Shown one piece after another: positions 12,665 to 38,622 of a stretch of 64,000 nucleotides of DNA (positions are counted from its first letter, which is position 1; every line of letters starts with the position of its first letter). This stretch comes from Eledone cirrhosa (taxonomy: Eukaryota): assembly GCA_964016885.1 (NCBI GenBank), contig OZ024751.1, positions 35,216,001-35,280,000 of the forward strand, read 5' to 3'. The notes under the pieces were generated by a model. That model was not told the DNA's origin, ran no database searches, and saw nothing but the letters and a program-made list of their open reading frames with translations. A program made the translations under genes and the position numbers.

Positions 12665-14474
12665 TATCTATCTACCTGTCTGTCCATCTGGTCGCCAGAC
12701 TGCCTATCTATCTATCTACCTGACTGTCCATCTGGTCGCCAGACTGCCTATCTATCTATCTACCTGTCTGTCCATCTGGTCGCCAGACTGCCTATCTATC
12801 TACCTGTCTGTCCATCTGGTCGCCAGACTGCCTATCTATCTATCTACCTGACTGTCCATCTGGTCGCCAGACTGCCTATCTATCTATCTACCTGACTGTC
12901 CATCTGGTCGCCAGACTGCCTATCTATCTATCTACCTGTCCGTCCATCTGGTCGCCAGACTGCCTATCTATCTATCTACCTGACTGTCCATCTGGTCGCC
13001 AGACTGCCTATCTATCTATCTACCTGTCTGTCCATCTGGTCGCCAGACTGCCTATCTATCTACCTGTCTGTCCATCTGGTCGCCAGACTGCCTATCTATC
13101 TATCTACCTGTCTGTCCATCTGGTCGCCAGACTGCCTATCTATCTATCTACCTGTCCGTCCATCTGGTCGCCAGACTGCCTATCTATCTATCTACCTGTC
13201 TCTCCATCTGGTCGCCAGACTGCCTATCTATCTATCTACCTGTCTGTCCATCTGGTCGCCAGACTGCCTATCTATCTACCTGTCTGTCCATCTGGTCGCC
13301 AGACTGCCTATCTATCTATCTACCTGTCTGTCCATCTGGTCGCCAGACTGCCTATCTATCTATCTACCTGACTGTCCATCTGGTCGCCAGACTGCCTATC
13401 TATCTATCTACCTGTCTGTCCATCTGGTCGCCAGACTGCCTATCTATCTATCTACCTGTCTGTCCATCTGGTCGCCAGACTGCCTATCTATCTATCTACC
13501 TGTCTGTCCATCTGGTCGCCAGACTGCCTATCTATCTATCTACCTGTCTCTCCATCTGCCTATCTATCTATCTACCTGTCTGTCCATCTGGTCGCCAGAC
13601 TGCCTATCTATCTACCTGTCTGTCCATCTGGTCGCCAGACTGCCTATCTATCTATCTACCTGTCTCTCCATCTGGTCGCCAGACTGCCTATCTATCTATC
13701 TACCTGTCTCTCCATCTGGTCGCCAGACTGCCTATCTATCTATCTACCTGTCTCTCCATCTGGTCGCCAGACTGCCTATCTATCTACCTGTCTGTCCATC
13801 TGGTCGCCAGACTGCCTATCTATCTATCTACCTGTCTCTCCATCTGGTCGCCAGACTGCCTATCTATCTATCTACCTGTCTCTCCATCTGGTCGCCAGAC
13901 TGCCTATCTATCTATCTACCTGTCTCTCCATCTGGTCGCCAGACTGCCTATCTATCTATCTACCTGTCTCTCCATCTGGTCGCCAGACTGCCTATCTATC
14001 TATCTACCTGTCTCTCCATCTGGTCGCCAGACTGCCTATCTATCTATCTACCTGTCTCTCCATCTGCCTATCTATCTATCTACCTGTCTCTCCATCTGGT
14101 CGCCAGACTGCCTATCTATCTACCTGTCTGTCCATCTGGTCGCCAGACTGCCTATCTATCTATCTACCTGTCTCTCCATCTGGTCGCCAGACTGCCTATC
14201 TATCTATCTACCTGTCTCTCCATCTGGTCGCCAGACTGCCTATCTATCTATCTACCTGTCTCTCCATCTGGTCGCCAGACTGCCTATCTATCTATCTACC
14301 TGTCTGTCCATCTGGTCGCCAGACTGCCTATCTATCTATCTACCTGTCTCTCCATCTGGTCGCCAGACTGCCTATCTATCTATCTACCTGTCTCTCCATC
14401 TGGTCGCCAGACTGCCTATCTATCTACCTGTCTGTCCATCTGGTCGCCAGACTGCCTATCTATCTATCTACCTG
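12665..14474. repeat. 44/40-bp TATC-containing satellite (~42 units)
   Basis: Unit cctatctatctatctacctgtctgtccatctggtcgccagactg. Confidence 0.97.
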
Positions 14475-14727
14475 AGACTGTGAATCCTTCTTGGATTTCT
14501 TAACAGCAGCTGCGGCAGATTTCTTGGAAAGAAGGACGGTCTGGATATTTGCTAATACACCACCCTGGGCAATGGTGACACCCGACAATAGTTTATTCAA
14601 TTCTTCATCATTACGGATGGCAAGTTGCAAATGACGGGGGATGATTCGAGATTTTTTGTTGTCCCTTGCAGCATTGCCAGCCAACTCGAGCACCTCAGCA
14701 GCGAAATACTCCATCACTGCAGCCAAA
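14471..14727 (-). pseudogene. H2A: Histone H2A (H2A.X-like) C-terminal-half fragment
   Basis: [69 protein letters not shown]...SQSQ. N-terminal half absent; substitutions at conserved sites; extended tail ending SQ suggests H2A.X. Confidence 0.92.
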
Positions 14728-15700
14728 GACCGAGGGAAATGGGCGATTGGCACATCGAATGTGCTCAGGCGCTCACAGCCCTCTGGCAGGCGGACCCGGC
14801 GATCAGTGGAGACTCCATTTCGTCATTCTATAGAGGGTTGATCCGCAGCAAGTGCGACGACGCGCTCGGTGAAACTCTAGGCGTAGAGGAAGATGAACTG
14901 GCCAGTCTGTTCGGTAGGACCTTCCGCCCGGGACCGATGGACAACTTCCAAAAGTCCCTGGCTTGGCAGTGCTACCGAGGAGCTCTACCAGTTTGAGACA
15001 AGCTCTACAGACATGGGCGCCCGGGCAGGGACCCTGCAAAAAAGATCTGTCCGAGGTGCGTGCGAGACGAAGAAACCGTCGCGCACGCATTCATACACTG
15101 CCCGGGCGTCACTGACCTGTGGGGCTATGTAGAACGACTATTGTCGCGGGTGGGACCAATCCGGTTGACCACCGAGTCCATTGTCATGATCAAACCGCCA
15201 CCCTCCTTCAAAAACGAAGGAGAGGCGGTTTTCCTTTGTGTGATAGCTATGGCGAAAGAGGTTGTATGGTGGACAAGGTTGAAAGGGCTGAGGTCAGACA
15301 CCTTTCTCTCCGGCCAACAACCGATTCTTTTTTTCAAATACCACTTTGGAAGAAGAATCAGGATGGAGAGAGAGGTGCTGTACCCCAGCAAGTTTTATGA
15401 AAGGTGGGTGAAAGTGGCGAGAATGGCCCGACTGAATGGGCCTTCTCTCTATATCAGCCTGTAGGTTGAGGAAAAGAAGGAGGAGAGGAAAGGAGTACAA
15501 ACTCTTCGTACTCCTGGAGATGAGGGTTGCACATTTTTTTCGGGGGTATATGTTACCCATATAAACTGTCTCCCCCTATTGGGGAAAATCGACTAACTTT
15601 TTAAATTGCATTTGTGATAACATTTTACGTTTTTATTGTATGTAAACTTCCCCCTTTGTATGTGTCCCCTTCTTTTGTGCCCCTGTGGCTAATAAAGAAA
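14725..15700 (+). mobile_element. 5'-truncated L1/Tx1-type non-LTR retrotransposon (ORF2 C-terminal zinc knuckle + 3' UTR)
   Basis: LAWQCYRGALPV*DKLYRHG...ICPRCVRDEETVAHAFIHC (CCHC, zf-RVT-like), stop at 15464, 3' end gtggctAATAAAgaaa. One premature TGA at 14994-14996. Confidence 0.85.
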
Positions 15701-16092
15701 CATATCTATCTACCTGTCTGTCCATCTGGTCGCCAGATTGTCGGACTATTTCACTGTATATCTATCTATCCGACCGTATATATGTGTCTGCTTATCTACG
15801 TGTGTGTGTGAAATGTAGTCACTCAAACGTAAATGACCATAATATTAGTCGGTCACTATAAATAATAGTTGAGAAAAGCCAGGTAAAAATAACCCTGGGG
15901 ACGGGAGAAGAATTTAACAGGTGTCTGCGAGGAATCGAACCCTATATCTCTCGGATATCAGGTCAGCTCTCAAATATTATAGTGACCGACTACTATCATT
16001 TTAATCACTTACGTTGCGACTACTACCTTTCAGTCTTAAGTCAACCTGATGTTCACACACACACACACACATATGTATAAATATATATATAT

Positions 16093-16382
16093 AGAAAAAA
16101 AGATGAAATCGAAAATGCAATTGGAGTCTTATTTAAAAAATATATATATATATTTATTTGGTTCCTTTACTAGTTTCGCAGTTCTTCTGCTTTTCAAAAG
16201 TAGAGTTGAGATGGAGGGTCTGTGGTTTTTCCCACAGATGTGAGAAAAACCACAGACCCTCCATCTCAACTCTACTTTTGAAAAGCAGAAGAACTGCGAA
16301 ACCGGTAAAGGAACCAAATAAATATATATATTTTTTAAAAAAATAAGACTCCAGTTGCATTTTCGATTTCATCTTTTTTTCT
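16093..16382. repeat. ~290-bp near-perfect palindrome carrying hammerhead-like motifs on both arms
   Basis: Arms of about 143 bp centred near 16237. Motif TTGAAAA-GCAG-aagaa-CTGC-GAAA-CCGG-TA at 16278-16307 and its mirror at 16163-16202. Confidence 0.9.
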
Positions 16383-16442
16383 TTATACTTTCACTCGTGT
16401 AGGACACCTCGGTTATTTTTCATTTTGTAAAAAAAACCTCAC

Positions 16443-16475
<33 letters not shown>

Positions 16476-16859
16476 ACATAGATTTCACCTAGGCGTTACT
16501 CCGAGTTTCGCTACGAGTGCTTGTTATTAACTGCGTTATATATCGACACAGCTGTCTGTGTGTGTGTATATATATATACACACACACACACACATAAACG
16601 TGAGGAAGGTGTATTTGATACATCTCGCAGATAATGTGTATGTGTGAGTATGTACAATAAGTACATGTCGCTTCTTCAATGTAAGAATGTCAATAATATG
16701 TATGTGTATATATATATATATACAGACACACGTATATATAGCTGGAGAGAGAGAGGAGGGATGTCCAACAATATAGTGGGATTTGCTTCCAAAAGGGAAT
16801 TTCTTTATTCGGTTGTCACCCAATCTGACAACAAACGTTTATAACAAATATTATACACA

Positions 16860-17606
16860 AATATTGCATATATATATATTATACACAAATATATATATAT
16901 ATATATATACTACAGTATATATATATATATTACAGTATATATATATATATATATATATATTACAGTATATATATATATACTACAGTATATATATATATAC
17001 TACAGTATATATATATATATACTGTAGTATATATATATATATACTGTAGTATATATATATATACACTACAGTATATATATATATATACTGTAGTATATAT
17101 ATATACTGTAATATATATATATATATATACTGTAATATATATATATATATATATATACTGTATATATATACTACATATATATATACTACAGTATATATTT
17201 ATATATATATATATACTGTATATATATACTACATATATATATACTACAGTATATATTTATATATATATATATACTGTATATATATACTACATATATATAT
17301 ACTACAGTATATATTTATATATATACTGTATATATATACTACATATATATATACTACAGTATATATATATATACTACAGTATATATATATATATACTGTA
17401 GTATATATATATATATACTGTAGTATATATATATATATACTGTAGTATATATATATATATACTGTAGTATATATATATAAATATACTGTAGTATATATAT
17501 ATAAATATACTGTAGTATATATATATATACTGTAGTATATATATATAAATATACTGTAGTATATATATATATACTACAGTATATATATATATATATATAT
17601 ACTGTA

Positions 17607-17648
<42 letters not shown>

Positions 17649-17857
17649 ATATATATATATACTGTAGTATATATATATATACTACAGTATATATATATAT
17701 ACTACAGTATATATATATATATACTACAGTATATATATATATACTACAGTATATATATATATACTACAGTATATATATATATATACTACAGTATATATAT
17801 ATATACTACAGTATATATATATATATACTACAGTATATATATATATATATACTACAG
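16860..17857. repeat. (TA)n satellite punctuated by CTACAG/CTGTAG
   Basis: Seen directly. Confidence 0.95.
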
Positions 17858-18209
17858 GTATATCACGGACCTCTACAAACTATTATATGTAAGATATATA
17901 ATATACATGTAGGCCATTCTCTGTAGGCCTGGGATCGTTTCAAGATAAGCTATGATATAGTATGGATGTGGGCATTGAGCAATACTGCACCCTAAGACTT
18001 ATGATAGGGCTATGATTTGAGGGAGATTGGCAGTTATTTATAGTAGGTCGATTGACATTGCTAACTAAAGGAATCCATAGTTGACTCCTTTTCGTATATA
18101 TCAGTTGAGAAGGTGTTGGGTGTGTCATATTGGGAAGGAAAGAAAGGTGGAACTAATTACTTAACAGGTAGGCAATAACGACTGTCTTAGAGGTCTTTGT
18201 AAGGTAAAT

Positions 18210-20019
18210 TATCTATCTACCTGTCTGTCCATCTGGTCGCCAGACTGCCTATCTATCTATCTACCTGACTGTCCATCTGGTCGCCAGACTGCCTATCTAT
18301 CTATCTACCTGTCTGTCCATCTGGTCGCCAGACTGCCTATCTATCTACCTGTCTGTCCATCTGGTCGCCAGACTGCCTATCTATCTATCTACCTGACTGT
18401 CCATCTGGTCGCCAGACTGCCTATCTATCTATCTACCTGACTGTCCATCTGGTCGCCAGACTGCCTATCTATCTATCTACCTGTCCGTCCATCTGGTCGC
18501 CAGACTGCCTATCTATCTATCTACCTGACTGTCCATCTGGTCGCCAGACTGCCTATCTATCTATCTACCTGTCTGTCCATCTGGTCGCCAGACTGCCTAT
18601 CTATCTACCTGTCTGTCCATCTGGTCGCCAGACTGCCTATCTATCTATCTACCTGTCTGTCCATCTGGTCGCCAGACTGCCTATCTATCTATCTACCTGT
18701 CCGTCCATCTGGTCGCCAGACTGCCTATCTATCTATCTACCTGTCTCTCCATCTGGTCGCCAGACTGCCTATCTATCTATCTACCTGTCTGTCCATCTGG
18801 TCGCCAGACTGCCTATCTATCTACCTGTCTGTCCATCTGGTCGCCAGACTGCCTATCTATCTATCTACCTGTCTGTCCATCTGGTCGCCAGACTGCCTAT
18901 CTATCTATCTACCTGACTGTCCATCTGGTCGCCAGACTGCCTATCTATCTATCTACCTGTCTGTCCATCTGGTCGCCAGACTGCCTATCTATCTATCTAC
19001 CTGTCTGTCCATCTGGTCGCCAGACTGCCTATCTATCTATCTACCTGTCTGTCCATCTGGTCGCCAGACTGCCTATCTATCTATCTACCTGTCTCTCCAT
19101 CTGCCTATCTATCTATCTACCTGTCTGTCCATCTGGTCGCCAGACTGCCTATCTATCTACCTGTCTGTCCATCTGGTCGCCAGACTGCCTATCTATCTAT
19201 CTACCTGTCTCTCCATCTGGTCGCCAGACTGCCTATCTATCTATCTACCTGTCTCTCCATCTGGTCGCCAGACTGCCTATCTATCTATCTACCTGTCTCT
19301 CCATCTGGTCGCCAGACTGCCTATCTATCTACCTGTCTGTCCATCTGGTCGCCAGACTGCCTATCTATCTATCTACCTGTCTCTCCATCTGGTCGCCAGA
19401 CTGCCTATCTATCTATCTACCTGTCTCTCCATCTGGTCGCCAGACTGCCTATCTATCTATCTACCTGTCTCTCCATCTGGTCGCCAGACTGCCTATCTAT
19501 CTATCTACCTGTCTCTCCATCTGGTCGCCAGACTGCCTATCTATCTATCTACCTGTCTCTCCATCTGGTCGCCAGACTGCCTATCTATCTATCTACCTGT
19601 CTCTCCATCTGCCTATCTATCTATCTACCTGTCTCTCCATCTGGTCGCCAGACTGCCTATCTATCTACCTGTCTGTCCATCTGGTCGCCAGACTGCCTAT
19701 CTATCTATCTACCTGTCTCTCCATCTGGTCGCCAGACTGCCTATCTATCTATCTACCTGTCTCTCCATCTGGTCGCCAGACTGCCTATCTATCTATCTAC
19801 CTGTCTCTCCATCTGGTCGCCAGACTGCCTATCTATCTATCTACCTGTCTGTCCATCTGGTCGCCAGACTGCCTATCTATCTATCTACCTGTCTCTCCAT
19901 CTGGTCGCCAGACTGCCTATCTATCTATCTACCTGTCTCTCCATCTGGTCGCCAGACTGCCTATCTATCTACCTGTCTGTCCATCTGGTCGCCAGACTGC
20001 CTATCTATCTATCTACCTG
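18210..20019. repeat. 44/40-bp TATC satellite, duplicate copy
   Basis: Same as 12665-14474, offset 5545. Confidence 0.97.
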
Positions 20020-20272
20020 AGACTGTGAATCCTTCTTGGATTTCTTAACAGCAGCTGCGGCAGATTTCTTGGAAAGAAGGACGGTCTGGATATTTGCTAA
20101 TACACCACCCTGGGCAATGGTGACACCCGACAATAGTTTATTCAATTCTTCATCATTACGGATGGCAAGTTGCAAATGACGGGGGATGATTCGAGATTTT
20201 TTGTTGTCCCTTGCAGCATTGCCAGCCAACTCGAGCACCTCAGCAGCGAAATACTCCATCACTGCAGCCAAA
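20016..20272 (-). pseudogene. H2A: Histone H2A (H2A.X-like) fragment, duplicate copy
   Basis: Same translation as 14471-14727. Confidence 0.92.
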
Positions 20273-21245
20273 GACCGAGGGAAATGGGCGATTGGCACAT
20301 CGAATGTGCTCAGGCGCTCACAGCCCTCTGGCAGGCGGACCCGGCGATCAGTGGAGACTCCATTTCGTCATTCTATAGAGGGTTGATCCGCAGCAAGTGC
20401 GACGACGCGCTCGGTGAAACTCTAGGCGTAGAGGAAGATGAACTGGCCAGTCTGTTCGGTAGGACCTTCCGCCCGGGACCGATGGACAACTTCCAAAAGT
20501 CCCTGGCTTGGCAGTGCTACCGAGGAGCTCTACCAGTTTGAGACAAGCTCTACAGACATGGGCGCCCGGGCAGGGACCCTGCAAAAAAGATCTGTCCGAG
20601 GTGCGTGCGAGACGAAGAAACCGTCGCGCACGCATTCATACACTGCCCGGGCGTCACTGACCTGTGGGGCTATGTAGAACGACTATTGTCGCGGGTGGGA
20701 CCAATCCGGTTGACCACCGAGTCCATTGTCATGATCAAACCGCCACCCTCCTTCAAAAACGAAGGAGAGGCGGTTTTCCTTTGTGTGATAGCTATGGCGA
20801 AAGAGGTTGTATGGTGGACAAGGTTGAAAGGGCTGAGGTCAGACACCTTTCTCTCCGGCCAACAACCGATTCTTTTTTTCAAATACCACTTTGGAAGAAG
20901 AATCAGGATGGAGAGAGAGGTGCTGTACCCCAGCAAGTTTTATGAAAGGTGGGTGAAAGTGGCGAGAATGGCCCGACTGAATGGGCCTTCTCTCTATATC
21001 AGCCTGTAGGTTGAGGAAAAGAAGGAGGAGAGGAAAGGAGTACAAACTCTTCGTACTCCTGGAGATGAGGGTTGCACATTTTTTTCGGGGGTATATGTTA
21101 CCCATATAAACTGTCTCCCCCTATTGGGGAAAATCGACTAACTTTTTAAATTGCATTTGTGATAACATTTTACGTTTTTATTGTATGTAAACTTCCCCCT
21201 TTGTATGTGTCCCCTTCTTTTGTGCCCCTGTGGCTAATAAAGAAA
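20270..21245 (+). mobile_element. 5'-truncated L1/Tx1-type LINE, duplicate copy
   Basis: Same as 14725-15700. Confidence 0.85.
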
Positions 21246-21637
21246 CATATCTATCTACCTGTCTGTCCATCTGGTCGCCAGATTGTCGGACTATTTCACT
21301 GTATATCTATCTATCCGACCGTATATATGTGTCTGCTTATCTACGTGTGTGTGTGAAATGTAGTCACTCAAACGTAAATGACCATAATATTAGTCGGTCA
21401 CTATAAATAATAGTTGAGAAAAGCCAGGTAAAAATAACCCTGGGGACGGGAGAAGAATTTAACAGGTGTCTGCGAGGAATCGAACCCTATATCTCTCGGA
21501 TATCAGGTCAGCTCTCAAATATTATAGTGACCGACTACTATCATTTTAATCACTTACGTTGCGACTACTACCTTTCAGTCTTAAGTCAACCTGATGTTCA
21601 CACACACACACACACATATGTATAAATATATATATAT

Positions 21638-21927
21638 AGAAAAAAAGATGAAATCGAAAATGCAATTGGAGTCTTATTTAAAAAATATATATATATATTT
21701 ATTTGGTTCCTTTACTAGTTTCGCAGTTCTTCTGCTTTTCAAAAGTAGAGTTGAGATGGAGGGTCTGTGGTTTTTCCCACAGATGTGAGAAAAACCACAG
21801 ACCCTCCATCTCAACTCTACTTTTGAAAAGCAGAAGAACTGCGAAACCGGTAAAGGAACCAAATAAATATATATATTTTTTAAAAAAATAAGACTCCAGT
21901 TGCATTTTCGATTTCATCTTTTTTTCT
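21638..21927. repeat. 290-bp palindrome with hammerhead-like motifs, duplicate copy
   Basis: Same as 16093-16382. Confidence 0.9.
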
Positions 21928-21987
21928 TTATACTTTCACTCGTGTAGGACACCTCGGTTATTTTTCATTTTGTAAAAAAAACCTCAC

Positions 21988-22020
<33 letters not shown>

Positions 22021-22404
22021 ACATAGATTTCACCTAGGCGTTACTCCGAGTTTCGCTACGAGTGCTTGTTATTAACTGCGTTATATATCGACACAGCTGT
22101 CTGTGTGTGTGTATATATATATACACACACACACACACATAAACGTGAGGAAGGTGTATTTGATACATCTCGCAGATAATGTGTATGTGTGAGTATGTAC
22201 AATAAGTACATGTCGCTTCTTCAATGTAAGAATGTCAATAATATGTATGTGTATATATATATATATACAGACACACGTATATATAGCTGGAGAGAGAGAG
22301 GAGGGATGTCCAACAATATAGTGGGATTTGCTTCCAAAAGGGAATTTCTTTATTCGGTTGTCACCCAATCTGACAACAAACGTTTATAACAAATATTATA
22401 CACA

Positions 22405-23151
22405 AATATTGCATATATATATATTATACACAAATATATATATATATATATATACTACAGTATATATATATATATTACAGTATATATATATATATATATA
22501 TATATTACAGTATATATATATATACTACAGTATATATATATATACTACAGTATATATATATATATACTGTAGTATATATATATATATACTGTAGTATATA
22601 TATATATACACTACAGTATATATATATATATACTGTAGTATATATATATACTGTAATATATATATATATATATACTGTAATATATATATATATATATATA
22701 TACTGTATATATATACTACATATATATATACTACAGTATATATTTATATATATATATATACTGTATATATATACTACATATATATATACTACAGTATATA
22801 TTTATATATATATATATACTGTATATATATACTACATATATATATACTACAGTATATATTTATATATATACTGTATATATATACTACATATATATATACT
22901 ACAGTATATATATATATACTACAGTATATATATATATATACTGTAGTATATATATATATATACTGTAGTATATATATATATATACTGTAGTATATATATA
23001 TATATACTGTAGTATATATATATAAATATACTGTAGTATATATATATAAATATACTGTAGTATATATATATATACTGTAGTATATATATATAAATATACT
23101 GTAGTATATATATATATACTACAGTATATATATATATATATATATACTGTA

Positions 23152-23193
<42 letters not shown>

Positions 23194-24080
23194 ATATATA
23201 TATATACTGTAGTATATATATATATACTACAGTATATATATATATACTACAGTATATATATATATATACTACAGTATATATATATATACTACAGTATATA
23301 TATATATACTACAGTATATATATATATATACTACAGTATATATATATATACTACAGTATATATATATATATACTACAGTATATATATATATATATACTAC
23401 AGTATATATATATATATACTACAGTATATATATATATATACTACAGTATATATATATATATACTACAGTATATATATATATATACTACAGTATATATATA
23501 TATATACTACAGTATATATATATATATACTACAGTATATATATATATATATACTACAGTATATATATATATATACTACAGTATATATATATATATACTAC
23601 AGTATATATATATATATATACTACAGTATATATATATATATACTACAGTATATATATATATATATATACTACAGTATATATATATATATATATACTACAG
23701 TATATATATATATATATATACTACAGTATATATATATATATACTACAGTATATATATATATATACTACAGTATATATATATATATACTACAGTATATATA
23801 TATATATACTACAGTATATATATATATATACTACAGTATATATATATATATATATACTACAGTATATATATATATATACTACAGTATATATATATATATA
23901 TATACTACAGTATATATATATATATATACTACAGTATATATATATATATATACTACAGTATATATATATATATATACTACAGTATATATATATATATATA
24001 CTACACTATATATATATATATACTACACTATATATATATATATATATACTACACTATATGTATATATGTATATATTACAG
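22405..24080. repeat. (TA)n/CTACAG satellite, full-length copy
   Basis: Seen directly; extends about 0.65 kb beyond the duplicated segment. Confidence 0.95.
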
Positions 24081-29280: not shown

Positions 29281-29384
29281 CATCATTATTTAATATAGAA
29301 ATGGCTTTTACAGGACTAGAACTATTTCATACGAATGAAACAGTTCTAGTCCTGTAGAAGCCATTTCTATATTAAATAATGATG
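29281..29384. repeat. ~104-bp hairpin element in the probable COPG 3' UTR
   Basis: catcattatttaatatagaaatggc...gccatttctatattaaataatgatg. Related copy at about 45100-45200, partial at about 25003-25032. Confidence 0.85.
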
Positions 29385-29557: not shown

Positions 29558-32500
29558 TTAACCAACAGCAGAAACAAGGATTTCGGAGACAATTGGGTCT
29601 GAAGAACGGACAGTAAGCTGCATGGTAACGCCACCCTCAGTCAGAGCCAACTTAGCTCGGAGTAAAGCATCATGACCACCACGGAACACACCAGCCAGAT
29701 ACAGAATGTGAGAGTTCTTCCCTGCGGGAACTTTATCGGAGCGTTCACATGGCTGCATCCCAAGATATTGGATAATATTCTTAACCGCTTCTGCAAATAA
29801 TAAGAAAACAAACAATTGTATAAAGCAAATAACATGGAACCAAAGTCTGAAGAGAATTCTTTTGATATTTAAAGGTTCTTTTAATATTTGGAGTCCAAAA
29901 AACAGAAAATAACTGTAATACTCACCAATCACTTTAGATATTTGAGGAAATGGATAAATTACACTTAAAGATGGAAATAGAAATTTTTCTGACTAAGTAT
30001 AATTTACTCAATTTTCTTAACTATTATTTATAGTGATTGACTGTGATGATGGTTATTTTGTGCATTTGGGACTCTCACATTTTCAAATTTCAAACACTCC
30101 CAGCACTTTAATAATTCGTATGGTTTCTTATAATATATTTACCTTCCAGAGTTTTAACTGAAGATAGAGAAAACGTGTCTTCTAGTTCATTAGCAGGACC
30201 AACTTCTTCCCAGGAAGCACCAAAGTTAGGTTTCATCACACGTTGTACATGATCTGCTACGTTGATATCAATGTCTTCAAGCTAAAACAATAAAATATAG
30301 ATATAAATATACATGAAGGATCCATAGAAGTGGTTGATAGCTTCTGTTATCTAGGTGACCTAATGAACAGCGAAGGAGAGTGCTCTGAGAGTACAATAAC
30401 AGTTAAAAGGATAAATTTATGTGTAACATGTGTAAAGAAAAAGAAAATATGGCATAATCTCCTCAGAAGCCAAAATTAAATATATATAATATATATAATA
30501 CAAATTACACTGAAGTGAAGCCTTGTAAGGTAATTTGTAGGGAAGAATTAGATCTCCAAATAATATGTACGTTATAACCAAACACATCTCCAAGGTACCA
30601 CAGAATGCAATCTAAACTAAACAACTGCAAAATAAACTTCTTAACTACACAGCCATGTCTACTACATGTATGTCCATTTTACCAAGACAATGGTTGAAGT
30701 GTAAAATGCTAACTTACCACATATTCATCTGGGTAGCCATCATCATCTGGTTCTCCTGTGTTAGGATCACAGTCTTTGACTGTGAATTTTAAGCTGCAGG
30801 TGAATGTTGTTGTTACTGGAGTAGAAATAAGATCACAGTAAAATAAAATGAATTTATCATTAAATAAAAAAACATTTGAAAAGTTCTTAAAGAAACATTT
30901 TTTTTTTAAATAATAAAAATCGTTTTATGAAATTTTTTTATAACTTCATTGATTCAGATTTACAATTATTATTATTATTTTTTTTTCTTCAGAAAATAAA
31001 ATATTTGGGATTAGACGAGTCATAAAGTCTAATAAACTGAGACGTACCTATAGTCTCGTCCTCTGGCAGACGTACAAGAACATATGTTGTTCCGGGTTGG
31101 TCATAGGGTAAGTTATGACATGGTACAGCTTTTAATACCTCAAACGGATCTGTAGATTCTAAGTGGACTGTCACATTTTCAAGTTTCTGATCATTAAGGG
31201 TGTTAATACAATCAAACTGAAAGAAAGAAGTAACATGGTATATATATACACACACATATATATATACACACACATATATATATATTGATCAGATCAAAAA
31301 CAAAAGTACCCCAGTTACTTATATTACTAAATCTCTCCAAATTCTTGATTAACTTCTAAATTATTTGAAACACAAGGAAGTATTTTACATTAGAAATAAT
31401 GTAAGGAAAGGTTTAAATCTTATCAGAAACTTACCTGGAACACAATGTAATGAGCAAAGGTATGCTTGATACACCGTACAACATATTCTGTTTCTTCTTC
31501 AGTTAATTCTATTGGTTTAGTTGATGACTTGAATAATGGTCCAAGGTTACTAAATTCTGGAATGATACTCAATTGCTCTGTAATTAAACAAAAAAATATA
31601 TAAATGGATGTCTACATAGAAACAGTAAATGTCTACATAGAAATGGATGTCTACAAATAAATGGATGTCTACAAATAAGTGGATGTCTACAAAACTGGAT
31701 GTCTACTTATCCTGGTTTTATGTGGTGTTAGGTGACTAACAGGGCAAGATTTCACCCCTCAGATGAGGAGATACTTTTTCTCATGAATAAAACACCAATG
31801 ATAGAACTGAAAGACTGAGTGGCAGCTGAAAGTAGGTGTGTAAAACTGTCCTAACTAAATAGTCAATGAAATATATGCAGTAGATTTGAACCAAAGACCT
31901 CACAGCTGCTGGAAATGTGATAATAGAATATTACACAGAAAGAAACATAGAAATAGTCTTGGACTCACCAGCATAAACATCTTGTCGGGTTGAAGCAACT
32001 TTTTCTGGTTTATCTCTGATGGTTTCTCCTGGCTCCATAACTAAAAAGAAACATTAGGGCTTGGATGAGGTATATGGGTGACAAGGGTTTTGGTTTTGTC
32101 AGTTTGGGTACTGATAGTTGATCATGCAGTTAACTTTGGTATTTCAGGTCAAGACACTAGGGTATAAGTTGGAGATTATTTCTGGTAGTTTTGAAGATTG
32201 TATGAGTGCAATGCCAATCACATAATGGAGTTGTAGTCACTGCAGAGTAATATAGAAACTACATAATATGACAGCTGCAGCATGATGACATCTGTTATCT
32301 CCATACCAGTAATTAGAGTTGGTTACTGGTTTACTGGGAGGACTGGGGCTTGGTTCTTGAAGTCTGAATTTAATTCATGTCTTATGCAATATGTGTAAAG
32401 TGGGTGAGGTTGATAGGGTTATGGCCTGCATTTGCTTGAGTTTGTAGATAGGATGGGCTTGGTGTAAATTTGTTTACATTCTAGTTAAGGCAATTAGTTA

Positions 32501-35500
32501 TATATATATGTGTGTGTGTGTATTCTTACCAGTTCTTTGCTCCACAATCGGTTGGGTTTCCAGAGGCACAGTCTTCATGTCAAATGGTACATCTGATGGA
32601 TCAGTCTGACCGTATTGGACCAAAGCACGTTCCAGACCAACCACTGACACTTGTAAACCTTTCAGAAGAACATTGAAAGAAACAGTTATTTATTGATAAA
32701 CAACAGGTATTAAATGAGGTACTACAGAAAATATCTAGGGCTGTGTCTCTTTCATATAGACCGTAAAACCAGATTACTAACTCACCATTGAGAATGTAGG
32801 CAGAATTTAAGGCTTTCTGGTATTGTTTGAGGACATTGACATAGAAGGTTGCTCTATCTCTCACTTCATCATCACTGTCAAGTTGGCATCTGAAAGAAAC
32901 ACGTCAGAAACAGTTTACCAGAATAATAAAGGTTTCAAATTTAGGCACAAGGCCAGCAATTTTGTGGAGGAGGGGAAGTTGATTATATCGACCCCAGCAC
33001 GTGGCTGGTACTTTATATCAACCCCAGTACGTTCGTTAATTTTTTTATAGCAAACATATTGGTAACAATCTGCAGGAATGATATTGCTTACCTTTCTAAA
33101 AGCACAACACAGCTTGGTAGAAGGTCTTCACATTGGGCTCCAAACTTAGCAAGGGCTGTAACAGCAGCTGCAGGAAAGACAAGGAACATTTGTGAATATA
33201 GTTATTTGGTCATTTGGCAACTTAAGGAAAGAAGTTAACATCTGTTAACTTCTGTTCATAGAATTTGTAGTTTAACCCTTGTGTTGCCATATTTCTAACA
33301 GAAGACACTGCATGTGGTTTCCAATTGATTAAGAATTTGCAGAGATTTAGTAATATAACTAACTTTCTTCTTGTTAAGCTGGTCTTTGAAACATTTTACA
33401 GAGCGTCTTTTACTGTGGTAACAGCACTACCACTTTACAGATTGGACTGGGTAGATTCTATTGTGGCGCCAATACTACCACTTTACAGAGTATACCAGGT
33501 GCATTTTATCCTCCAATCATAAATATGGTAATGAAAGAGTTAAAATTGAAACAAATAACAAGACAGGAATAATTTCTGTTGAGACAGATTCTTTAACGCT
33601 TTAGCATTTAAACCGGCCATACCCGGCCAGAATTCTCTCACCTCTTTCTGTTCAAACTGGCTGTAACCAGCTGCTCATACTGATGTTAAGGTATTGTTCT
33701 CAAAATAAATAATGTAAAAATCTCATAGATTTGATATTATGTGAGGTAACGCCTTTATCACAAAAATACAGTAGTATATATATAGTAATGTAAATGCTAA
33801 TGCGTTAAGAGGAATATAATGATATTACCAGCTCTAACAGCAGCATTTTCTAGAATAACTCTATTGTAGATAAATCTGATGTATTTAGAAGGTGTTGGTG
33901 TACGAGGGCCTTCACGACCAAGGAGGTGAAGAATTCGGGTTGCCAAAACAGTATGTTCACAATCTTCAATGAATTCACACAAATGAGCCAAACCTGAGAA
34001 GATAAATGACAGATTGAATTATTGAGCATTAACATGTATGTGGAGTGTGTGTGTGTGTATGTTGAGTGTGTGGTGTGTGTGTGTGGAGTGTGTATATGTG
34101 TGTTGAGTGTGTGGCATATGTGTGGTGTGTGTGTGTGTTGAGTGTGTGCTATGTGTGTGGTATATGTGTATGTGTGGTGTGTGTGTGTGTGTGTGTGTGT
34201 TGAGTGTGTACCATGTGTGCGGTATATGTGTATGTGTGGTGTGTAAGTGTTGAGTGTGTGCCATGTGTGTGGTATATGTGTATGTGTTGTGTATGGTGTG
34301 TGTTGAGTGTGTGGATGTGATATTATAAAGGTGAGATCTACAAACATATAGAGTAGATAATACAGTAGACATACCAGCTTCTTTAGCATCTGGGTTCTCA
34401 TCAATAATAACAATAATATTGTTCACTATGGCTCGCTTGTAATCAAAGCCACCCTGAAATAGAGAAATATAATATTAGGGATATCATAGAATACTCAATG
34501 TAAATGTTGTAACAATTTGAAATATATTGTAAAATAGTTGGCATTAAGGACATCCAGCTGTAGAAACATGATGTCTAGGACAAGACAATCTCCCTAGTAC
34601 TGGAATCACAATAGAGCACCGAGTACACTCTGTAATATAGTTGGCATTAAGAAGGACATCCAGCTGTAGAAACATGATGTCAAAAGCTTAGCGATGACTT
34701 TTCAGTTATATGATCTCAAGGACGAGACAATCTCCCTAATGATGGAATCACAATAGAGAACCCAGTATAAAGACACATTGCCAAGATTAATATTATTATT
34801 ATTATTATTTACCTCATCTCTCAACATGGAAGAGAGAAAGTTCATCACAACATTGTGTTTGCGGGGGAATTTCAGACAAAGAGATCTAGAGGAAAGAAAA
34901 GGAAAAGAAACAAAGAATAGAAATTTACATTAATAAAGCAGAAGGATGATGATGGTGATGATGATGATTGTAGTGGAGATGATTAAGATGATGGTAATAT
35001 GTATAAAGAGATGATAAAAATGACACAATGTCTGTGACTCAATGAAGTTTGTAGAACAAACCTTATTGCTTGGACAACAACAATCTTGAACTCATCTGAA
35101 ATTTCATTCATGAAGTTTGAAATCTGTTTCATCAGACGATCAACACTGCTTTCACTTCCAGTCTAGAAGAAAACAGAACAGAAGATGTCTCGCTGTTTTA
35201 ACTGACACACTACAGACACAACACAACACACTACAGACATAACACACTACAGACACAACACATTACAGGTAGAACACAACACAACACATTACAGACATAA
35301 CACACTACAGACACAACACAACACATTACAGGTAGAACACAACACAACACATTACAGACATAACACACTACAGACACAACACAACACATTACAGGTAGAA
35401 CACAACACAACACATTACAGGTAGAACACAACCCAACAGACTACAGGTAGAACAGGTAAGAAAATAAATGAGGTTTACCTTAAGTAATGTTGTGATAGCC

Positions 35501-36990
35501 AGTGTTGCTATACTACGGTTGAGGTCTGTGATTAGATTCTCCAGATCCAGATTACAGGCAGTCACGGCTGCAGGATGTTTCATGGCTACCTAATAACAAG
35601 AAATACACAAATATACATTTACATTTCAACAGGTTTTTACAGTTATTCCTGTCAAAACATTTAGAAATATGTTTGTTGTGTCTGTTGTTTTGTCGAAACA
35701 AACAGAAAATACTTTTATTAACGTCCCTATATTCTCTGTCTCTTCCATTTCTTCTTCTTGGTTAATCAATATGTTGGTTCTCATCGATATCTCTTATTTT
35801 CAGTTACAGCTCATGGGTTAGTGGCAATGTTTCTCTTATTTGTAAATAGTTGTTAAGACTATCACCTCGTCCTTTGTCCATTTGTTACTGTACCTTGTGC
35901 ATTAGAGCTACTGTACCTTGTGCATTAGAGCTAGTTGTATTGACCTTAAAGCACTGAAACAACGTATCTCTTGCGGTCAACTGATGAGATGAGACTGCCT
36001 GTATTTGTTCATTTTCTTGTCTTCACCCCTATTCTTCATCCATTTATATGTATGTGTGTATATATATATATATAGATAGAGATAGATAGATGTATGCAAA
36101 CATGGAAAAGCAGCTGCAAAATGATGATGATATATATGTTGTAATAATAAAGTTACCAGTCCACACTGTAAAGTGGTAGTGCTGGTGCCACAAGAAAATG
36201 CTCCCAGTAAACACAGAGAAGTGGATGGGTCAAACTGAGATCTATGGTTAAGACGCTTGCCCAAGATTCCACATTGTGGGGTTGAGCCTTGGAACGCTTT
36301 ATAGCAAAGGGAACATTTTCAACTACTCAGCCATGTGTACTTTAACCCTTTAGCATTTACATTACTCTATATATACTATTGTATTTTTATGGTAAAGGCT
36401 TTATCTTATATATTTATCTTACATTAGCATTTACATTACTATATATATACTACTGTATTTTTGTGATAAAGGCGTTACCTCACATAATATCAAATCTATG
36501 AGATTTTGATATTATTTATTTTGAGAACAATACCTTAACATCAGTATGAATGGCCAGTTACAGCTGGTTTGAACAGAAAAGGTGAGAGAATTCTGGCCGG
36601 ATATGGCCAGTTTAAATGCTAAAGGGTTAAATCTTAAAAAAGACCAGAGCTACAACTAATTTAGAAATGAACCTTTCTAAAAGGTAATACATGTGTCTAA
36701 AAGGTAATACAGGTGTCTAAAAGGTAACCTACTTTATTGAGGGTTCTGACAGCAGCAAACCGAAGGGTAGGTTTGGGAGAACTACAGAACAACTGCAATA
36801 CTGAGACAGCAGGGGCCAGTTCTTTAGCTGGGGTTGTCTTCATATTAACAATAGCATGAGCAGCTTCATATATAACCATTTCACTTTTGTGTCGAAGACA
36901 ACTTTCAATGAATTCAAACAGCTGACTTTCAGCACTGAAATAAAAAGTTGAACAATAAATAAGTCTTCTAAATTATAATTTTTTCTGGAG

Positions 36991-37046
<56 letters not shown>

Positions 37047-37055
37047 TGTGTGTGT

Positions 37056-37148
<93 letters not shown>

Positions 37149-38622
37149 TGTGAGTGTGTGTGAGTGTGTGTATGTAGGTGTGTATATAATATGTGTGTGT
37201 GTATATGTATAACATCAAATTACAAATGACTTTATGAAAGAAATATTCTCAAATCAAGTAAGAATTACGTTCAATTAACCTTGTTATATTTTACTAATAT
37301 AAAACAGCGGCTTAATATATCTTAATTAATATTCTAATTAAAATTAACATTTACTAACCCACATTCTTCTTCCTCAATTAATTTGCTGGCAATACGAATC
37401 TGGAAACAAAAAAATAGATGATGTAACAAAATATTCTAAGGTTTTGGGAGTATTTTTTTATTTTTAAGACACAAAGTGTTATGTATATCTGGTTTAAGAT
37501 AGGTACATCATGTCCCTTGGTGTCATAAAAGGTGACTAAGATGGCTGGCACCAGGAAGAGCAACTGGCTCCACCAGTTTCTGTTTGGTTTTAGTCATGTC
37601 AGGAGTATAGCTGTACTCACCAAGCTTGACCAATTGCAGGTTGGTGAGGCTATTTAACCCACAGTTGGGGTGGATGACCATTAACTCTGTAGAGTTCATC
37701 CCCAACAACATACAATATATTTATTGCAATGTGAATAAAATAAAATAAAATACATTAGGAGGGAGAAAAGAAAGCAATCATCCTTACCAACAAACAATGT
37801 GCATATGGTGACCGCAGAGAATGTTTACTGAATTTGCTGACCAGTTTTGTCACAGCCAATTTATCACTTTTCCGAATGTGATACAACAGTCCCAGTGCAT
37901 GATACTGAAACACAAAACAATAGATATCGATATAGCAATATCATGTGAGAACTACCTATAAATATAGATTGATATTAATATAGCAACATCGTGTGATAAC
38001 TACCTATAAATATAGATTGATTTTAATATAGCAACAATTATGTGATAACTAGATATAAATATAGATTGATATCACTATAGCAACATCGTGTGATCATCAT
38101 CATCATCATTTTACCTCCGCTTTTCCCTGCTTGCAAGGGTGGGACGGGTCCTATTCAGCACAGCATCTCTCCACTTGTCACGGTCCTTCGTCATCTCCTC
38201 CGTTTGATTGATATCATTATAACAACATCGTGTGATAACTACATAGAATTTGAAGTTGGTGAAAATCCTTAAAATATTGACCCTGAATATAAGCACACAT
38301 CCCCATTTTACCATTTGTTTAGGTCGCATATTCCTCAGCTTATATTCGGGTAAACACAGTATTTACAATAAAGTGAAACAATATATAAAAGTGAGATACT
38401 AACCTGCACCATGACATTGTCACTGTTTACAGCCTCCTGGGCCTCATTTATCCATCTTTTGACAATTTCTTGGTTGCCTTTACATAAATGCTGCAAAAAA
38501 ATACCAATATATATATATATCTATCAATATACATATATATATATATATATCAATATACATACACATATCTATACATATACACATACATATATGTAAACAT
38601 ATCTTTATATATGTTTACATAT

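Follow-up and report, generated by a model that had tools for sequence, protein, structure and literature searches.

Does a palindrome that carries a hammerhead-like motif on each strand act as a self-cleaving element in its own right, or is it the remnant of an insertion that happened to bring two such motifs together? The question is raised by a locus in the genome of the octopus Eledone cirrhosa (GCA_964016885.1, contig OZ024751.1, forward-strand positions 35,216,001 to 35,280,000). This 64,000-nucleotide stretch is called the window below, and all coordinates are given within it. An original prediction, made from the letters alone, described the palindrome as the inverted pseudo-LTR (pLTR) of a Penelope-like element (PLE) or of a retrozyme. 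Following up this prediction, we estimate a probability of roughly three in four that the unit is a dead, 5'-truncated Penelope-like insertion whose terminal repeat carries a type I hammerhead with a U3:A8 core.

Anatomy of the palindromic unit

The inverted repeat and the motif on each of its strands are both present as predicted. The arms span 16088-16236 and 16239-16387 (149 nt each, 93% complementary), and the boundaries first proposed, 16093 and 16382, correspond to the ends of true homology, since the outermost arm bases are merely TA matches. The complete unit exceeds the extent given originally and covers 16093-16448 (356 bases). Along the locus, (TA)n is followed by the inverted arm, the junction and the direct arm with its 66-nt tail, and then by (TA)n again.

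The left arm (16093-16237, minus strand) mirrors 16238-16382 and represents an inverted, 5'-truncated and tail-less copy of the repeat end. The direct arm (16235-16382, plus strand) belongs to a repeat that is very abundant in octopus, probably a PLE pLTR, of which it forms the 3' part. Between them lies the inversion junction (16220-16255), where a perfect 6-bp fold-back (CTGTGG/CCACAG) precedes a short stretch that overlaps the direct arm; its two differing bases are absent among the family variants listed. The arms differ at these two junction bases, at a CG/TA pair, at one further site (16354/16121) and in an AT-rich run. Outside the junction and the AT-rich run there are thus only three differing sites, two of which make up a CCGG/CTAG exchange. 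The 66-nt tail (16383-16448, plus strand) is attached to the direct arm only. On the left, the (TA)n target flank occupies 16080-16093, and the same 14 letters occur again at 16448-16461; the right flank extends over 16449-16475. This 14-letter repeat lies inside a microsatellite, from which a target site duplication would be indistinguishable.

A second copy of the unit (21638-21993, offset +5545) is 100% identical and cannot be counted as independent, because it falls inside an exact 5,540-bp tandem duplication. The duplication itself (12318-17857 and 17863-23402, 100% identity) includes satellite and microsatellite arrays, and could be either an artefact of assembly or very recent.

A hammerhead motif on each strand

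The right-arm motif (16275-16310, plus strand) consists of the core TTGAAAA (16278-16284), a stem II formed by GCAG and CTGC around the loop AAGAA, GAA at 16298-16300, helix III ACCGGT at 16301-16306, and A17 at 16307, after which cleavage is predicted. The left-arm motif (16165-16200, minus strand) shows the same parts with the core starting at 16197, helix III ACTAGT instead, and a predicted cut after 16168. Both arms hold a Watson-Crick 3:8 pair in the form U3:A8, with every other core position canonical, and the type I boxes GAAA, A15.1-U16.1 and H17 are found in both motifs. Stem II has 4 bp, is closed by G10.1-C11.1 and reaches a pairing probability of 0.68 in the single-arm fold. As cautioned originally, stem I is short, with 3 bp that are followed by an A.G mismatch and one more pair. 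ACCGGT and ACTAGT are both self-complementary, and predicted dimers form an intermolecular helix.

The frequency of such motifs was assessed with a descriptor written post hoc (C3:G8 or U3:A8 core, stem II of at least 4 bp, palindromic helix III, stem I of at least 3 bp). It returned two matches in the de-duplicated window, the two arms counting as one independent match, compared with a mean of 0.013 in shuffled windows (2 of 150 shuffles had a match). A match is therefore rare per window, yet hundreds would be expected by chance in a gigabase genome, and for this reason the case also relies on the repeat context. An Rfam search of the whole window at gathering threshold gave no matches. At E≤10, the interval 16000-16520 yielded 27 sub-threshold matches with no hammerhead among them; we rejected these as hairpin artefacts, since they were mostly microRNA hairpin models fitting the palindrome.

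Two further hammerhead-like motifs were seen in the window, at 49774-49830 and 42396-42460 (both plus strand). Both combine a C3:G8 core with a 6-bp stem II and precede a TA run; in the one at 49783, stem I measures 5 bp and helix III is nearly palindromic. These are likely decayed copies of another PLE family. Separately, 16305-16402 (plus strand) resembles an intron: a GT lies at the predicted cut site, and a long run of pyrimidines ends in a TAG 98 nt downstream. The donor of this possible intron would overlap helix III. Introns at the 5' end are known from PLEs.

The arm belongs to an abundant repeat family

Part of the queried stretch is contained in 20 of the 23 listed Logan runs, under 17 organism labels, and at least half of its words in three of them. 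No RNA data set was listed among the holders, which is evidence in neither direction. The family was compared over 16203-16448 in four of the 23 listed runs (X1, X4, X5 and X7). In X1, 5,260 contigs out of 16,285,364 records matched, with 7, 11 and 7 matches in X4, X5 and X7, respectively. The arm repeat is thus very abundant, and relatives occur under three more organism labels.

Whether TTGAAAA is a family consensus had been set as a check on the original prediction, and it proved to be the majority core in all four runs. No variant of at least 3% was listed at 16275-16287 or 16289-16301, and U3 and A8 are both the family majority. Since no such change affects core positions 3 or 8, the U3:A8 core is not a private decay of this copy. 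Around the motif, X1 showed variants at 16255 (12%), 16270 (20%) and 16273 and 16274 (about 31% each), the last two being found as a pair in an X7 contig as well; given an unaltered 3' strand, the change at 16274 would bring stem I to 4 bp through an additional C-G pair. At G16288, which forms the loop-closing pair of stem II, X1 held about 5% C and 5% T (about 11% of depth). These changes break the pair, and a partner change was not among the variants listed.

Conservation of the core in X1 was indistinguishable from chance (5 variant sites in 52 nt; the probability of none in the 10 core nucleotides is 0.33). One X4 contig differs at five listed sites on the 5' side of the motif, while the motif itself is free of listed changes (post hoc P about 0.03). 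Neither covariation between C3:G8 and U3:A8 nor any other two-sided change was listed within the family in the four runs, a comparison of unphased variants that skipped 16307-16348, including the 3' strand of stem I; depth drops at 16302-16310.

On the 5' side, at least 45 contigs in X1 and one each in X5 and X7 extend beyond 16235 into one shared sequence that does not mirror the arm, and this continuation occurs under three organism labels. In X5 and X7 its length is at least 129-251 letters, and no match to it was seen elsewhere in the window at up to 3 mismatches. On the 3' side, among the contig ends listed, (TA)n follows 16383 (28 contigs), 16387 (52 in X1 and one each in X5 and X7) or 16447 (4 contigs), and depth runs on across 16388-16448 in all four runs. 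Both end points of the tail therefore recur in family contigs. All these end counts come from 16 rows of loose ends, next to which 100 further rows exist.

The mirror stub had a summed depth of 3,902-23,500, compared with about 1.56 million on the arm, figures that do not represent copy number. This shows that a palindrome centred as here is a small minority of the family. Alternative junction forms were also present among the family contigs, and some copies invert at other points. Exact-pattern scans gave no matches in metagenome contigs and none in genome contigs; two matches in viral contigs were rejected as chance, with agreement over only 20-22 nt.

Predicted folding of the arms and of the whole unit

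In the predicted fold of a single arm, stem I has a pairing probability of 0.001, and the minimum-energy structure pairs 16278-16288, that is the 5' core box and one strand of stem II, with 16353-16367. Such a pairing would be an inhibitory fold. RNA read across the entire unit is predicted to form one long hairpin (-222.9 kcal/mol) that buries both ribozymes and in which stem II has a probability of 0.0. On this model the present copy is therefore probably inert as a ribozyme. The two motifs form no dimer in cis either, because they lie on opposite strands. If transcribed, the palindrome hairpin would more likely be an ADAR substrate, and octopus is an animal with heavy A-to-I editing (PMC5625713).

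The exchange of CCGG for CTAG between the arms alters both bases of one CpG and retains the palindrome, which amounts to one compensatory pair in helix III. The other two CpGs of the arm (16297-8 and 16364-5) are identical in both arms. Pure CpG decay, which the original prediction had raised as a caveat, is not favoured by this single instance, because both CpG bases must change while the two others stay as they are. A compensated sub-lineage, with the arms derived from different templates, is possible, again from one instance. The predicted helix III energies of the homodimers are -8.3 kcal/mol for CCGG and -4.8 kcal/mol for CTAG, and a mixed CCGG and CTAG helix is predicted at -0.2 kcal/mol, i.e. 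the two variants do not pair.

These observations could be extended to a very high-copy octopus PLE family with an active U3:A8 hammerhead, with mutually incompatible ACCGGT and ACTAGT sub-lineages and with arms copied from two RNAs. We regard this larger picture as speculative and rather improbable. If true, arms copied from two RNAs would be evidence from the genome for a dimeric PLE protein that uses two templates to build head-to-head insertions, and a very high-copy U3:A8 family of octopus PLEs would have escaped CUGANGA-based searches.

Origin of the unit

Published PLE insertions are built from pLTRs with a truncated copy adjoining in inverted orientation, have palindromes at their junctions and may carry a tail (PMC3846280; PMC8557442). 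The unit has an inverted, 5'-truncated copy next to its 5' end with a palindrome at the junction, and a tail at one end only (16383-16448), though at 66 nt it is longer than the published tails of 30-40 bp. Of the two parent types put forward originally, the Penelope-like one is thus supported by the direct arm, the inverted copy, the one-sided tail and the (TA)n target. The retrozyme option was rejected: there is no head-to-tail array, and the sole same-strand copy is the exact 5.5-kb regional duplicate. When low-complexity pieces and this duplicate were left aside, none of 131 ORF pieces in the window (at least 60 aa) matched PLE reverse transcriptase (RT) or GIY-YIG. The present copy is without an ORF, as expected for a truncated one.

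A purified PLE protein has been found to nick AT-rich DNA and to extend both strands, with two start sites defining the tail (PMC11167929). By analogy, an RT/GIY-YIG protein of the PLE would have nicked the (TA)n target and copied the RNA 3' end twice, once from a start that includes the tail and once from a tail-less start. A fold-back or microhomology would then have served to join the two short cDNAs head to head. Joining cDNAs with and without a tail in this way would leave one motif per strand, which would make the presence of a motif on each strand a by-product. In the tandem transcript of the parent, by comparison, two same-strand motifs would pair through helix III, which is self-complementary, and their cleavage after GUA would probably be weak.

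Much of this would hold equally if the repeat were a short, non-autonomous, SINE-like PLE derivative, amplified in trans as a family of its own, with an ORF in no copy and the PLE protein borrowed. The extreme abundance and the lack of an ORF nearby agree with such a derivative, as do reports that most minimal hammerheads (min-HHRs) are solitary in the genomes studied (PMC4209133) and that mobilisation in trans requires no more than pLTR sequences (PMC3846280). Its mechanism would be the same as that of the Penelope-like insertion, only the parent being different, and the 5' continuation of the family in X5 and X7 speaks against it; we consider it improbable. A closer contender, although still unlikely in our view, is a PLE-derived unit whose ribozyme was already dead in the parent, the U3:A8 pair and the short stem I being a fixed relic. 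The 3-bp stem I and the non-significant core conservation fit this, and published work found hammerhead mutants to leave PLE insertion in vitro unaffected and, in Anolis, detected no RNA that ends at the cut site (PMC11167929). However, all core nucleotides are intact with the 3:8 pair kept, U3:A8 ribozymes are reported to be active in vitro (PMC3088659), and the X4 contig, whose motif is free of listed substitutions, points in the same direction.

The unit could also be a palindromic MITE, that is a DNA transposon with a TA target, whose arm resembles a hammerhead by accident. Such an element would account for a long inverted repeat with TA flanks and for the lack of a hammerhead match in Rfam, and palindromic DNA repeats occur in other animals (PMC5625713). 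Nevertheless, the family contigs largely refute this reading: the ends are asymmetric owing to the one-sided tail, the mirror stub amounts to about 1% of the summed depth of the arm, the family extends into non-mirror sequence, and junctions and centres vary. All core positions of a hammerhead, the compensated 3:8 pair among them, are also matched by the motif, and an origin as a MITE is very unlikely. We find it hardest of all to credit that the palindrome is a functional, self-propagating unit of the retrozyme kind with one working ribozyme per strand. One motif does lie on each strand, and both helix III variants remain self-complementary. Against this stand the missing head-to-tail array, the predicted single hairpin devoid of stem II, the failure of the two helix III variants to pair together, and the small share of the family that is palindromic, in which the centres vary.

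Genomic setting

ORF pieces of the window matched coatomer exons, histone H2A and parts of zf-RVT, and there were also weak membrane matches. Coatomer subunit gamma is represented by exons at 29561-37940 (minus strand); the last one found is 99% identical to the Octopus bimaculoides protein, the next named match being cuttlefish at 90%. The palindromic unit is located about 13 kb beyond this exon.

Several other features were noted in the window. At 14463-15461, between a 44-bp satellite and the palindrome, a histone H2A fragment (minus strand) abuts the 3' fragment of a zf-RVT retroelement (plus strand), a pair which we take to resemble a Tx1-type end. At 1-1692 there are about 250 copies of GGGTTA on the plus strand, followed by a 200-N gap; because the G-rich strand points into the window, this array is an interstitial or misjoined telomeric repeat. 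Four further palindromes, from other repeat families, occur at 29281-29384, 45096-45196, 49055-49145 and 57597-57797, most of them beside TA runs. The last is made of a repeat of roughly 200 bp that has many copies in the window.

Comparison with known systems

The core is not novel, as it is already in print: U3-A8 with the same UUGAAAA is described in the Cercyon PLEs of S. mansoni, where this variant has about 1,300 matches (Cervera & De la Peña 2014, PMC4209133). Natural U3/A8 covariants were also reported by Perreault 2011, with in vitro activity cited (PMC3088659), and opposite-strand hammerhead pairs 100-700 bp apart are on record (PMC4209133). Our literature search, whose scope did not extend to most subscription papers or to repeat databases, found no U3:A8 hammerhead family reported in octopus. 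The octopus or cephalopod hammerhead reports that it did find were Hydra-1_Obim, with a C3:G8 core (Craig et al, 2021), and an Rfam count in giant squid; the main text of the O. vulgaris repeat paper does not mention hammerheads. The family may already be catalogued in Repbase, Dfam or the O. vulgaris repeat library.

Among published hammerheads, the present motif shares its type I layout, U3-A8 core and UUGAAAA with the Cercyon min-HHR family Sm4. Stem II is 6 bp in the Schistosoma example, where A9 is followed by an additional nucleotide and helix III lacks an insert; the present motif, in contrast, has a 4-bp stem II, no extra nucleotide and a helix III that is a 6-nt palindrome. In this last respect it resembles the PLE hammerheads of Marsupenaeus, Drosophila, Aedes, Chlamys-2_cBra and the Hydra clade, in which GAAA, a palindrome and UH follow each other. 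The Marsupenaeus example has a 4-nt helix III insert and a UA cut site, and Chlamys-2_cBra has the same ACCGGT as our right arm (PMC8557442 supplement). In contrast to the present motif, the listed examples with a palindromic helix III all have a C3:G8 core. Small palindromic helices III in flies, shrimp and mosquitoes are reported in PMC4209133, as is low cleavage, seen only with multimers.

With regard to the insertion, the Hydra-clade PLEs (Hydra-1_Obim, Penelope-13_HM; Craig et al, 2021, PMC8557442) share the (TA)n target and include an octopus member; according to the supplement of that work, octopus Hydra and Naiad PLEs both target (TA)n. In Penelope-13_HM, an inverted 5'-truncated copy places the same hammerhead on both strands, as here. 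None of four exact window words was found on the sense strand of that supplement, in which line breaks may hide a word, and the Hydra-1_Obim hammerhead differs in sequence from ours. For these reasons, and as far as sequence can tell, the family appears to differ from the published octopus Hydra and Naiad consensus. The EN+ PLE insertions (Arkhipova et al, 2013, PMC3846280; Frangieh et al, 2024, PMC11167929) have in common with the unit a head-to-head inverted copy, a junction palindrome, a tail at one end and an AT-rich target, and they differ from it in tail length, as given above, and in that the present copy lacks an ORF. Animal non-LTR retrozymes (bioRxiv 10.64898/2026.07.22.740005) are likewise non-coding, with a type I hammerhead and a proposed PLE origin, but the head-to-tail tandem units that define them are absent here.

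Taken together, this is likely a new host and a new family for a known kind of element, each feature stressed in the original prediction being already in print. Octopus is thereby added to the hosts of U3:A8 PLE-type hammerhead motifs, with a very abundant family that Rfam and a CUGANGA-only descriptor both miss. Given an assembly, its size would make two matters testable, namely selection on the hammerhead cores of PLEs, and whether one or two templates give rise to inverted arms.
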